Shown here: in pieces, positions 58,895 to 63,090 of the stretch
How the letters are laid out: every line of letters begins with the position of its first letter
How positions within the stretch are numbered: the stretch's first letter is position 1
Source of the DNA: Escherichia coli
GTDB lineage: Bacteria; Pseudomonadota; Gammaproteobacteria; Enterobacterales; Enterobacteriaceae
DNA length: 64,000 nt
Assembly (NCBI RefSeq): GCF_029227855.1
Contig: NZ_CP074356.1
Strand: one strand, 5' to 3'
The notes under the pieces: generated by a model
Database searches by the model: none
The model's input: the letters and a program-made list of their open reading frames with translations, nothing else
Told to the model about the DNA's origin: nothing
Made by a program: the position numbers and the translations under genes

Positions 58895-59674
58895 ATGACG
58901 ATGAATTCATTCGAGCGAAGGAATAAGATCATCCAATTAGTGAATGAACAGGGAACCGTGCTTGTTCAGGATCTGGCGGGAGTATTTGCTGCCTCGGAAG
59001 CGACAATCCGTGCCGATTTGCGCTTTCTCGAACAAAAAGGCGTGGTTACGCGCTTTCATGGCGGTGCGGCGAAAATAATGTCCGGTAATAGTGAAACCGA
59101 GACCCAGGAAGTCGGGTTTAAAGAGCGATTTCAGCTCGCCAGCGCGCCAAAAAACAGAATAGCGCAGGCGGCAGTCAAAATGATCCACGAAGGGATGACC
59201 GTTATTCTCGACAGCGGAAGTACGACAATGCTTATCGCCGAAGGATTAATGACCGCCAAAAATATCACGGTGATTACCAACAGTCTCCCGGCAGCATTTG
59301 CCCTTTCCGAAAATAAAGACATTACTCTGGTCGTCTGTGGTGGGACCGTCCGCCATAAAACACGCTCGATGCATGGTTCCATTGCCGAGCGTTCATTGCA
59401 GGATATTAATGCCGATTTAATGTTTGTCGGTGCTGATGGTATTGATGCGGTTAATGGTATTACGACCTTTAATGAAGGTTATTCGATTAGCGGGGCGATG
59501 GTTACAGCCGCAAATAAAGTGATTGCCGTTCTCGATTCATCGAAATTTAATCGTCGCGGTTTTAATCAGGTACTGCCAATCGAAAAAATTGACATTATTA
59601 TTACCGATGATGCCGTGTCAGAGGTGGATAAACTGGCATTGCAGAAGACACGGGTGAAATTAATTACGGTGTAG
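58895..59674 (+). CDS. gatR: DeoR-family repressor of the gat operon, apparently intact
   Basis: 259-aa uninterrupted ORF with N-terminal HTH and DeoR C-terminal sugar-binding domain. Confidence 0.85.
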   Translation: MTMNSFERRNKIIQLVNEQGTVLVQDLAGVFAASEATIRADLRFLEQKGVVTRFHGGAAKIMSGNSETETQEVGFKERFQLASAPKNRIAQAAVKMIHEGMTVILDSGSTTMLIAEGLMTAKNITVITNSLPAAFALSENKDITLVVCGGTVRHKTRSMHGSIAERSLQDINADLMFVGADGIDAVNGITTFNEGYSISGAMVTAANKVIAVLDSSKFNRRGFNQVLPIEKIDIIITDDAVSEVDKLALQKTRVKLITV

Positions 59675-59755: not shown

Positions 59756-60655
59756 TTAACGCAACAATGGGCAATCTGGTGGTAATCGACAACGCAACGC
59801 CGCCGGAAGTATTTCAATATGAAAGTTTTGTCCGCTCAACGGTTCGCCATCAAGATTAAAAGTGATTTCGTGTGGGGCTTGTATATCAAACCACGACGAA
59901 GCGCCTTCGATAATATTCGGGTTATCTTCGTCAGATTTTAATGTTGATACGAGAGCCGGAAGAATTTCATCGCCGGTAAAAATGCGCAGTTGCAGCAAGC
60001 CATCGTTAATTAACGCGTTCGGGCACAATTGCTGACCGCCACCGGCCTGACGCCCGTTACCAATACCAATGACCAGGGCGTCACCTTGCCAGTGAAAGTT
60101 TTCACCGCGGATCTCACAACGGTCCGGTTGCAGAGTATCCATGCGCATTAAGCCATGAATGATGTAAGAGACGCCACCCAGCGCGGCTTTTAATTTTTCC
60201 GGCGTTTCTGTGGTAATACGCGTCCCAAATCCGCCTGTCGCCATATTAATAAAACAGGTTTGTTTGTTGACCTGCGCCATATCTATCGCAATGGCGTCAC
60301 CGGCAATTGCCAGTTTCAGCGCCTTATCCAGTGCCTCAGGAATCCTTACACTGGTGGCAAAATCATTGGCGGTTCCTAATGGCAAAATTCCTAGCGCGGG
60401 TATGTCATCCCCCTCACACTGAATCAACGCCGTAGAAACTTCATTAATGGTGCCATCGCCACCACCGGCAATCACCGTTGCGACGCCCAACTTCCGGGCC
60501 TCCTCTACATATCGTGCGGCATCGCCTTTCTCCCAGGTGACCCGCACATGGATCGTCATTCCTTCCTCACGCAACAGCATAATTGCTTCGCGCAATGGTA
60601 AATTGTCAGTACTTTTGCCATTAAGAATCAGTAAGCTGGCGGGAAATTCTGCCAT
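59756..60655 (-). CDS. yegS: Lipid kinase YegS (DAGK_cat family)
   Basis: 299 aa; GGDGT motif ([11 protein letters not shown]). Confidence 0.9.
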
Positions 60656-61069
60656 GATCGTATGTGCCTTTATGATTGGTCTGTAGATAGTGTATAGCAG
60701 AAAAGAAAAGGTGGAGTCAGAACAGGATGAAAGTCGGAGGATAAAAAATCAGTTCAAGTATGGAGGATTCAGTGGTTACCACCAGGAGCTTGCAATGGGG
60801 ACAGTGAATGTTAACGGTAGCCACCGGTAAATTTCAAAAAAGAGCATATACCTAATATTCAACTAAACAGTGGCATCTTCAATATACTATTAAAAATATA
60901 TTAACCCCCCCATGGGGTTACCCGGAAGGGCCTCCGTGTATGTAATTCCTACTTATGTAGGAAATGTTGTACAGAACATTTATTATAATCCTATTCAATT
61001 ATAATAATCATGCCATTATTATATTTAAACACCAGAGCGTGTCGTTGGTATTTAATGGGGGAAGGTGAG

Positions 61070-61387
61070 ATGAAAAAGATAGCTGCTATATCATTAATTA
61101 GTATTTTTCTTATGTCTGGTTGTGCTGTGCATAATGATGAAACAAGTATCGGTAAATTTGGTCTTGCATATAAAAGTAATATTCAGCGTAAACTCGATAA
61201 CCAATACTACACCGAAGCCGAAGCTTCTTTAGCCAGGGGCAGAATTTCTGGTGCAGAAAATATAGTAAAAAATGATGCAGCTCATTTCTGTGTTACTCAG
61301 GGCAAAAAAATGCAGATAGTTGACCTGAAGACAGAAGGTGCAGGATTACATGGCGTCGCTCGTCTGACATTCAAATGTGGAGAGTGA
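61070..61387 (+). CDS. yegR: Small lipoprotein YegR
   Basis: ORF 61010-61387; start MKKIAAISLISIFLMSGCAVH (lipobox) gives 105 aa. Confidence 0.8.
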   Translation: MKKIAAISLISIFLMSGCAVHNDETSIGKFGLAYKSNIQRKLDNQYYTEAEASLARGRISGAENIVKNDAAHFCVTQGKKMQIVDLKTEGAGLHGVARLTFKCGE

Positions 61388-61556
61388 GAATATTTTTTGG
61401 TAAGCGTCAAACATGCGCGTTCTGATTGTGCGTAGCCGGAACCTGTACGAGCACGATGCCGTTAAGTGAAAGGCATCGTGCTATGAAGGGGGATTCTATC
61501 GATGTGGTCAATGGAAGACGGTCACCTGGGATCAATCCGTCTCTATGGTTTATGCA

Positions 61557-61644
61557 CAAAAAATAAGCCCGTGTAAGGGAGATTACACAGGCTAAGGAGG
61601 TGGTTCCTGGTACAGCTAGCATTTTATGGGTTATGTTTTTCAGC
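61557..61644 (-). ncRNA. cyaR: CyaR (RyeE) Hfq-dependent sRNA
   Basis: Reverse complement reads GCTGAAAAACATAACCCATAAAATGCTAGCTGTACCAGGAACCACCTCCTTAGCCTGTGTAATCTCCCTTACACGGGCTTATTTTTT, which I recognise as CyaR including terminator hairpin and U-tail; directly downstream of yegQ. Confidence 0.85.
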
Positions 61645-61678
61645 GAAACAGATGATAACCTTAATAAATGCAGCTGTA

Positions 61679-61694
61679 TGTGATCGGTTTCTAA
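61679..61694 (-). promoter_or_regulatory. Probable CRP site (tgtga-tcggtt-tctaa) centred about 42 bp upstream of the cyaR 5' end
   Basis: One consensus half-site and one degenerate half-site at class II spacing; cyaR is known to be CRP-activated. Confidence 0.5.
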
Positions 61695-61728
61695 GAATTT
61701 TCCATCCGGGAAAAATAATCGAAATTAA

Positions 61729-63090
61729 TCACTTACCGTGGGGGTTACGCGTGGTTTCCCCGGAGAAATTACGCATCAGCAGCGCGTAATTTAGCTCAAG
61801 ATCCTGCGGCACCGGGATCCACACAGTATAACCATCGCCCGGTGCGACCGGCATTGCTTCGCCTTTGGCGTTTTCCATGTGCTCAAGGGTAAAGTTAATG
61901 TTCCCTTGCGGCGTCATCAGCTCAAGGCTGTCGCCAACGGAGAATTTATTTTTCACCGCTACCGCCGCGAGGTCGCCCTTGCGCTCACTGGTAAACTCAC
62001 CAACAAACTGCTGGCGGTCAGAAACTGAATAACCGTATTCGTAGTTCTGATAATCGTCGTGAGTATGACGACGCAGGAAACCTTCGGTATAGCCACGATG
62101 CGCCAGACCTTCCAGGGTTTCCAGCAGGCTGGTATCGAATGGTTTTCCCGCAGCTGCGTCATCGATAGCTTTACGGTAAACCTGCGCGGTGCGTGCGCAA
62201 TAGTAGAAAGATTTGGTACGGCCTTCGATTTTCAGCGAATGCACGCCCATTTTGGTCAGGCGTTCAACATGGGCGATGGCGCGCAGATCTTTCGAGTTCA
62301 TGATGTAAGTGCCGTGCTCATCTTCAAACGCGGTCATATACTCGCCCGGACGCTGGGCTTCTTCGATCATAAACACTTTGTCGGTTGGTGCGCCGATCCC
62401 CAGCGTCGGTTCAACGTTTTGCACCGGAATCGGTTCGTACTTGTGTACGATGTTGCCGACGTCATCTTCTTTCCCTTCCTGGACGTTATACTCCCAGCGG
62501 CAGGCGTTGGTGCAGGTGCCCTGGTTCGGGTCGCGCTTGTTGATATAGCCAGAGAGCAGGCAGCGACCGGAGTAGGCCATGCACAGCGCGCCGTGAACGA
62601 AGATTTCGATCTCCATATCTGGCACCTGATTGCGGATCTCTTCAATCTCTTCCAGTGACAGTTCGCGAGAGAGGATCACGCGGGTCAGACCCATTTGCTG
62701 CCAGAATTTCACCGTCGCCCAGTTCACGGCGTTAGCCTGTACTGAGAGATGGATCGGCATTTCAGGGAAGTGCTCGCGCACCAGCATAATCAGCCCTGGA
62801 TCAGACATAATCAGCGCATCCGGCCCCATTTCCACCACCGGTTTCAGGTCACGGATAAAGGTTTTCAGCTTGGCGTTGTGCGGTGCAATGTTGACCACGA
62901 CATAAAACTTTTTCCCCAGCGCGTGGGCTTCATTGATGCCGAGCTGAAGATTTTCGTGGTTGAATTCGTTGTTGCGCACACGCAGGGAGTAACGCGGCTG
63001 GCCCGCATAAACAGCATCTGCGCCATAAGCGAAAGCGTAACGCATATTTTTCAGCGTTCCCGCCGGGGAAAGGAGTTCCGGTTTAAACAT
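61729..63090 (-). CDS. yegQ: Peptidase U32-family protein
   Basis: 453 aa; conserved Cys-rich U32 core. Confidence 0.9.
   Translation of the reverse strand: MFKPELLSPAGTLKNMRYAFAYGADAVYAGQPRYSLRVRNNEFNHENLQLGINEAHALGKKFYVVVNIAPHNAKLKTFIRDLKPVVEMGPDALIMSDPGLIMLVREHFPEMPIHLSVQANAVNWATVKFWQQMGLTRVILSRELSLEEIEEIRNQVPDMEIEIFVHGALCMAYSGRCLLSGYINKRDPNQGTCTNACRWEYNVQEGKEDDVGNIVHKYEPIPVQNVEPTLGIGAPTDKVFMIEEAQRPGEYMTAFEDEHGTYIMNSKDLRAIAHVERLTKMGVHSLKIEGRTKSFYYCARTAQVYRKAIDDAAAGKPFDTSLLETLEGLAHRGYTEGFLRRHTHDDYQNYEYGYSVSDRQQFVGEFTSERKGDLAAVAVKNKFSVGDSLELMTPQGNINFTLEHMENAKGEAMPVAPGDGYTVWIPVPQDLELNYALLMRNFSGETTRNPHGK

Follow-up and report, generated by a model that had tools for sequence, protein, structure and literature searches.

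The divergent genes yegS and yegR of Escherichia coli are separated by a spacer that contains two short, perfect palindromes, and the question is what, if anything, each of them does there. We analyzed a 64,000-nucleotide stretch of E. coli contig NZ_CP074356.1, hereafter the window, in which open reading frames and the RefSeq annotation place the lipid kinase gene yegS at 59756-60655 on the minus strand and yegR at 61070-61387 on the plus strand, leaving 414 bp between the divergent genes. The yegR product, 105 amino acids long with a lipoprotein-type signal sequence, matched no family in a Pfam search. Downstream of yegR follow the sRNA CyaR (RyeE; 61561-61646, minus strand; Rfam RF00112, 100.7 bits, E-value 1.4e-20) and yegQ/trhP. 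The measured transcription start of yegS (Kim et al. 2012, PMC3415461), located in the window by means of its published upstream sequence, falls at 60682 on the minus strand, 27 nt 5' of the ATG. The orthologue table for K. pneumoniae in the same work runs from yegQ straight to yegS, which is consistent with yegR being an insertion on the Escherichia side. Maharjan 2013 names both yegR and yegS and leaves the region between them unmentioned.

Some features of this neighborhood vary among strains and are recorded here as separate observations. The gene gatR, encoding a DeoR-family repressor of 259 amino acids (58895-59674, plus strand), is intact in the window, whereas the K-12 copy is split by IS3E. 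A P2-type prophage remnant (ogrK, yegZ, 'PR-X') lies between cyaR and yegR in K-12 (L012:3184-3989) and is absent from the window (61388-61560). The expression of yegR, yegZ and ogrK moves together (Seo et al. 2015; expression values only), and this joint change suggests read-through from the yegR promoter in K-12. An 11-bp inverted repeat, AGCACGATGCC...GGCATCGTGCT, is located 3' of yegR at 61450-61484; neither of its strands has a T-run.

Hairpin 1 (TAACCCC-CCCAT-GGGGTTA) has arms at 60902-60908 and 60914-60920 around a 5-nt loop, and hairpin 2 (TTCCTAC-TTAT-GTAGGAA) has arms at 60946-60952 and 60957-60963 around a 4-nt loop. Both are perfect 7-bp inverted repeats, as the initial annotation had described them, except that its first coordinate, 60903, was one base off. 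The yegR ATG lies 149 nt past the end of hairpin 1 and 106 nt past the end of hairpin 2. Two 7-bp stems with at least three G/C pairs are more than expected in 414 bp of Markov-1 random sequence (0.07 expected, P ~0.013); it should be noted that the same 120 bp contain further perfect 7-bp inverted repeats, all AT-rich, at 60962-60981, 60983-61004 and 61001-61022. Comparison with shuffled sequences separates the two hairpins. The fold of hairpin 2 goes far beyond its composition (z of -4.7 and -6.0, with none of 200 shuffles as good), and that of hairpin 1 remains at the level of its own dinucleotide shuffles (z of -0.18 and +0.07), because a C-run beside a G-run nearly always pairs. The 70-bp segments that contain hairpin 1 and hairpin 2 are both single-copy, with a median of one place per genome, so neither palindrome is a dispersed repeat of the REP, BIME or ERIC type, and the possibility that they belong to a known repeat family, which the initial annotation had raised, is thereby settled.

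The comparison of hairpin 2 with known operator motifs was productive, as this palindrome shares its inverted repeat with other promoters controlled by EvgA. Five K-12 regions of EvgA targets were scanned with the 18-mer from yegR, and sites with two to three arm mismatches were found upstream of every expected target, i.e., TTCTTACGCCTGTAGGAT at emrK/evgA, TTCTTACAACTGTAAGAA at frc, GTCTTACAATTGTAGGAA at yfdX, TTCTTACAGCTGTAGGCA at safA and TTCTTACAGGTGTAGGCT at ydeP; the few remaining matches with three mismatches in the scanned regions are all intragenic. The EvgA consensus used below was derived here from these five regions. At yegR, all 14 arm positions fit half-sites TTCYTAC with a 4-bp center, and the pattern TTCYTACN4GTARGAA occurs once in the 64-kb window, compared to 0.02 expected occurrences. 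A matrix built from the five sites, with yegR excluded, also gave the yegR site the top score in the window, but 26 of 200 random 64-kb sequences scored as high; we relied on the arm pattern and on conservation instead, because the central positions of a five-site matrix are overfitted. Position 11 of the yegR box is T as in the other five sites, while position 8 is T where they have A, a comparison that involves only five reference sites. The boxes at the other targets occur in either orientation, 111-251 nt from start codons, and several are imperfect palindromes that retain the half-site consensus. Such imperfection, together with the two orientations and the varied distance, fits a site bound by protein as DNA rather than a folded hairpin. 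In K-12, a second EvgA-like box, ATCTTACAGTTGTAGTTA, is found upstream of yfdX (L009:14501-14518), 38 bp from the main box, and yfdX may thus have a tandem pair of predicted EvgA boxes, unlike yegR.

Taken on its sequence, 60946-60963 is an 18-bp EvgA-type operator, and the link between EvgA and yegR has already been described. An 18-bp inverted repeat of EvgA sites was reportedly defined by Masuda and Church in 2003, and Itou and colleagues are said to have observed EvgA binding at yegR in 2009. According to a review, EvgA binds the yegR promoter (PMC8147483), and in one transcriptome yegR is up 11.9-fold alongside yfdX, ydeO and ypdI (PMC5811628). The gene downstream of the box is thus one at which EvgA binding has been reported and which is counted with the acid genes under EvgA control (PMC8147483; PMC5811628). 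The same palindrome could conceivably serve another regulator of the NarL/FixJ family instead, such as RcsB, GadE, NarL or YdeO-linked factors: half-sites within this family are alike (TAGGA-like), and the box contains TACTTAT, a match to the NarL heptamer TACYYMT. The arrangement of the half-sites speaks against this assignment. The order TCCTA...TAGGA with a 4-bp center is that of the five EvgA-target sites, and it differs both from TAGGA...TCCTA of RcsB and from the 7-2-7 layout of NarL. Moreover, it is EvgA that the literature names at the yegR promoter (PMC8147483), and it is with EvgA targets that yegR is co-induced (PMC5811628), so that we consider a different regulator of this family very unlikely.

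The box is conserved, and hairpin 1 is not; the conservation across E. coli on which the initial annotation had made its proposal depend was thus found for the second palindrome and lost for the first. The box is unchanged in 16 diverse E. coli sequences. Of 5417 genomes, 5036 carry an identical copy of a 30-mer that includes it (60942-60971) and the other 382 have one mismatch, which in both of the examples that we read falls outside the box. Over the 70 bp from the box onward, identity is at least 99% in 4252 genomes and 95-99% in 1143. The deep-branching strain N96 has the exact box within differing flanks. In a sister Escherichia lineage (L022), whose YegR is 92% identical, both arms are kept at nearly the same distance from the ATG (107 versus 106 nt), the flanks have diverged, and the 4-bp center is AAAC instead of TTAT, so that position 8 is A and position 11 is C. 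Directly next to the EvgA box, on the side of a downstream TATAAT, is the inverted repeat AAATGTT-GTACAG-AACATTT (60962-60981); its central TGTACAGAACA is retained in L022, and its arms are kept in neither L022 nor N96. We considered this repeat as a CRP site and rejected it, as its spacing is 2 bp too short.

Outside Escherichia, yegR homologues that are 82-84% identical occur in a Klebsiella sp., an uncultured Cedecea sp. and an Enterobacteriaceae MAG (L024, L025 and L026), in a neighborhood other than that of E. coli, just 3' of another coding region. No EvgA-like site was found near the homologues in these three genomes, and this absence fits a scenario in which yegR would have come under the acid regulon of EvgA within Escherichia.

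A candidate -10 hexamer of the yegR promoter, TATAAT at 60984-60989 (plus strand), can be read from the sequence 20 nt after the box. It is retained in N96 and reads TGTAAT in L022. N96 has lost a second TATAAT, at 61000-61005, which in L022 reads TATAAC; another promoter candidate, TTCAAT-17-TATTAT, lies further downstream. If the first hexamer is indeed the -10, transcription would start near 60996, the box would probably overlap the -35 element, and its center would be at about -41.5, which is a class II arrangement. It should be noted that the spacing between box and -10 varies among EvgA targets, and the geometry at -41.5 is therefore uncertain. The start sites of Kim et al. 2012 include that of yegS and none for yegR or the EvgA regulon; the missing yegR start agrees with a gene that is silent unless EvgS is activated. 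The spacer between yegS and yegR is, in addition, marked as bound by H-NS (Shimada et al. 2014, PMC3946193).

Put together, these observations support, with high confidence on our part, an explanation in which hairpin 2 is the EvgA operator that switches on yegR and hairpin 1 has no conserved role. EvgA is a NarL/FixJ-type response regulator that EvgS activates at mildly acidic pH; under this explanation, a dimer of phosphorylated EvgA would bind the inverted TTCCTAC half-sites and turn on yegR. Hairpin 2 would act as a double-stranded DNA operator, not as a hairpin formed in vivo. Hairpin 1 would be a palindrome that arose where a C-run came to abut a G-run in a fast-evolving spacer between the promoters of yegS and yegR.

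The initial annotation had also offered a structured leader as a possibility, and this proposal is not supported. The palindromes lie approximately 220-280 bp from the yegS start and, given its position at 60682, outside the yegS leader; most likely, the box is upstream of the yegR start and hence outside the yegR leader as well. A longer leader is nevertheless conceivable, one that begins at a promoter upstream of 60900, carries both palindromes at the 5' end of yegR and regulates the gene at the RNA level. A constitutive yegR promoter, TAAACA-18-TATATT, has been predicted upstream of both hairpins in K-12 (Shimada et al. 2014, PMC3946193), although as a hexamer prediction rather than a mapped start, and the 90 nt at 60896-60985 fold at -26.2 kcal/mol with both hairpins formed. 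This fold is, however, ordinary (z of -1.6, with 13 of 200 shuffles as good), hairpin 1 is neither conserved nor covarying, and an Rfam search of 60400-61800 matches only CyaR. The sequence of hairpin 2, for its part, recurs at other EvgA targets as a DNA motif, often imperfect, in either orientation and at the variable distances from start codons described above. Regulation of yegR through such a leader thus appears highly improbable.

The DNA around hairpin 1 evolves in quite another manner than the box. In an alignment of eight genomes, pairwise diversity along the spacer rises from 0.016 beside yegS through 0.078 in its middle part to 0.19 in the 70 bp of hairpin 1, drops to 0 within the box and is 0.043 between the box and the yegR ATG. 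For E. coli, the spacer as a whole shows unusual variability, and most genomes are 90-95% identical to the window. The hypervariable segment (60876-60945; pairwise diversity 0.19) includes hairpin 1 and a 9-bp indel, and 35 of its 71 alignment columns segregate among the eight genomes. Only 174 of 5426 genomes match these 70 bp at 99% identity or more, 2056 match at 80-90%, and approximately 1,970 have no match. The complete 7-bp stem is present in three of 13 distinct variants, its carriers being the window, strain CE2050 and a contaminating 'Citrobacter' MAG, which represent the allele type of the window; the full stem thus appears to be confined to the lineage of this strain. At the same place K-12 reads TAAAGCCCCCATGGAGTTA, and hairpin 1 is absent from N96 and L022. 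In a 17-sequence alignment, the two middle pairs of the stem form in three of 13 and two of 12 distinct rows, and no covariation was detected beyond that of shuffled alignments, 177 of 500 of which reach the observed level. A 30-amino-acid open reading frame that begins with an ATG in the loop of hairpin 1 (60912-61004) was likewise rejected as a candidate, since K-12 has a stop after four codons. We conclude that hairpin 1 is a palindrome owed to base composition, in a spacer that evolves neutrally or as a hot spot, and that has no conserved function that we could detect.

One function that could be assigned to hairpin 1 is that of an intrinsic terminator or insulator on the minus strand, stopping transcripts that come from the region of the yegR promoter and run towards yegS or ending a short divergent RNA. 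That neither palindrome is followed by a T-run, as the initial annotation had it, is true of the plus strand; on the minus strand, ATATATTTTT comes after hairpin 1, and TAACCCCATGGGGGGGTTA with this tail is called terminator-like by a simple consensus scan. Such a scan also yields promoter-like sites on the minus strand at 61045-61018 and 61029-61001, and the minus strand of most E. coli variants folds at -10 to -18.5 kcal/mol, with stems rich in G-U pairs. As the minus-strand RNA of most alleles still forms some stem, a weak structural role of hairpin 1 may exist. For termination, however, the evidence is unfavorable: the fold is at shuffle level (z of -0.38 for 61 nt), the pairing register moves between alleles with no covariation, the 9-bp deletion in the K-12 allele removes the T-run, and N96 and L022 lack the element. 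In addition, the measured yegS promoter is downstream of hairpin 1, and the text of a Term-seq supplement has no entry for yegS or yegR, which is weak evidence. We regard a terminator or insulator at hairpin 1 as quite unlikely.

A single regulator could also have used the two palindromes as operators that cooperate. The initial annotation's idea of a pair of binding sites is borne out insofar as hairpin 2 matches the repeat of EvgA promoters, at a gene where binding of EvgA has been reported (PMC8147483); the pairing itself is not. The centers are 43.5 bp apart, i.e., about four helical turns, and the two EvgA-like boxes of K-12 yfdX, 38 bp apart, offer a precedent. The sequences of the two palindromes are, however, unrelated, the yegS-yegR spacer contains no further EvgA-like site with up to four arm mismatches and no extra half-site, and hairpin 1 is variable or absent where hairpin 2 is invariant. 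Cooperation of the two is extremely improbable.

What remains mildly unusual is how diverse the 70 bp beside an invariant operator are. The core of the palindrome reads CCCCATGGAG in K-12, CCCCATGGGG in the window and CTCCATGGAG in strain F1E4, and CCTCATGGGG is also found. The hypervariable segment may be a quasi-palindrome mutational hot spot. A broader version, in which these 70 bp are a mutational or adaptive hot spot, the palindrome is perfected differently in each lineage and the alleles could tune the expression of yegR or yegS, seems to us unlikely. If it were true, the perfected palindromes could have come about through template-switch mutagenesis or selection, and the alleles could adjust the silencing of yegR by H-NS and its activation by EvgA differently among E. 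coli lineages or, alternatively, minus-strand read-through towards yegS; EvgS signaling is already known to vary naturally, and this would be a parallel case.

These results would pin the reported interaction of EvgA with yegR to 60946-60963 and show that few elements of the spacer, which elsewhere evolves fast, are as conserved as this operator. They also indicate, through hairpin 1, that base composition can be all there is behind a neat G/C hairpin. Because the regulator site has been described in the literature, the finding as such is already known, and its importance beyond annotation is slight.

Among known systems, structured RNAs and leaders offer no counterpart: Rfam returned CyaR alone for 60400-61800, and covariation was not above that of shuffles. 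The minus strand of hairpin 1 resembles a Rho-independent terminator in that its stem is G/C-rich and the tail behind it is A/T-rich and includes a T5 run, but 6 nt separate the stem from the start of the T-run, which K-12 has lost by deletion, the stem is at shuffle level and unconserved, and no gene lies upstream on the minus strand. Hairpin 1 therefore falls short of an intrinsic terminator on either strand, the plus strand having no T-run and the minus-strand candidate being unconserved with z near 0.

Hairpin 2 is comparable to several activator sites. The lux box of LuxR is a class II activator site centered at approximately -42.5, and the yegR palindrome would be alike, centered at about -41.5 and over the -35, if TATAAT at 60984-60989 is the -10; the other EvgA targets differ from one another in the distance between box and -10. 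BvgA, which acts at the virulence promoters of Bordetella, is the closest homologue of EvgA and binds heptad inverted repeats. Its repeats resemble the yegR box in their inverted TTTCCTA-like half-sites and in the kind of protein that binds them, a NarL/FixJ-type regulator acting as a phosphorylated dimer. Apart from the other organism and regulon, the difference is that BvgA primary sites are usually further upstream, with low-affinity secondary sites extending to the -35, and no such secondary sites were detected in the yegR spacer. The closest likeness is to the EvgA sites of emrKY, ydeP, safA-ydeO, yfdX and frc/yfdW, which share with the yegR box the 18-bp length, the inverted TTCYTAC half-sites, the 4-bp center and the placement 100-250 bp upstream of an acid-induced gene. 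Apart from the T at position 8, where the other five have A, the yegR box is distinguished from them as the most symmetrical of the set, with 14 of 14 arm positions in agreement.
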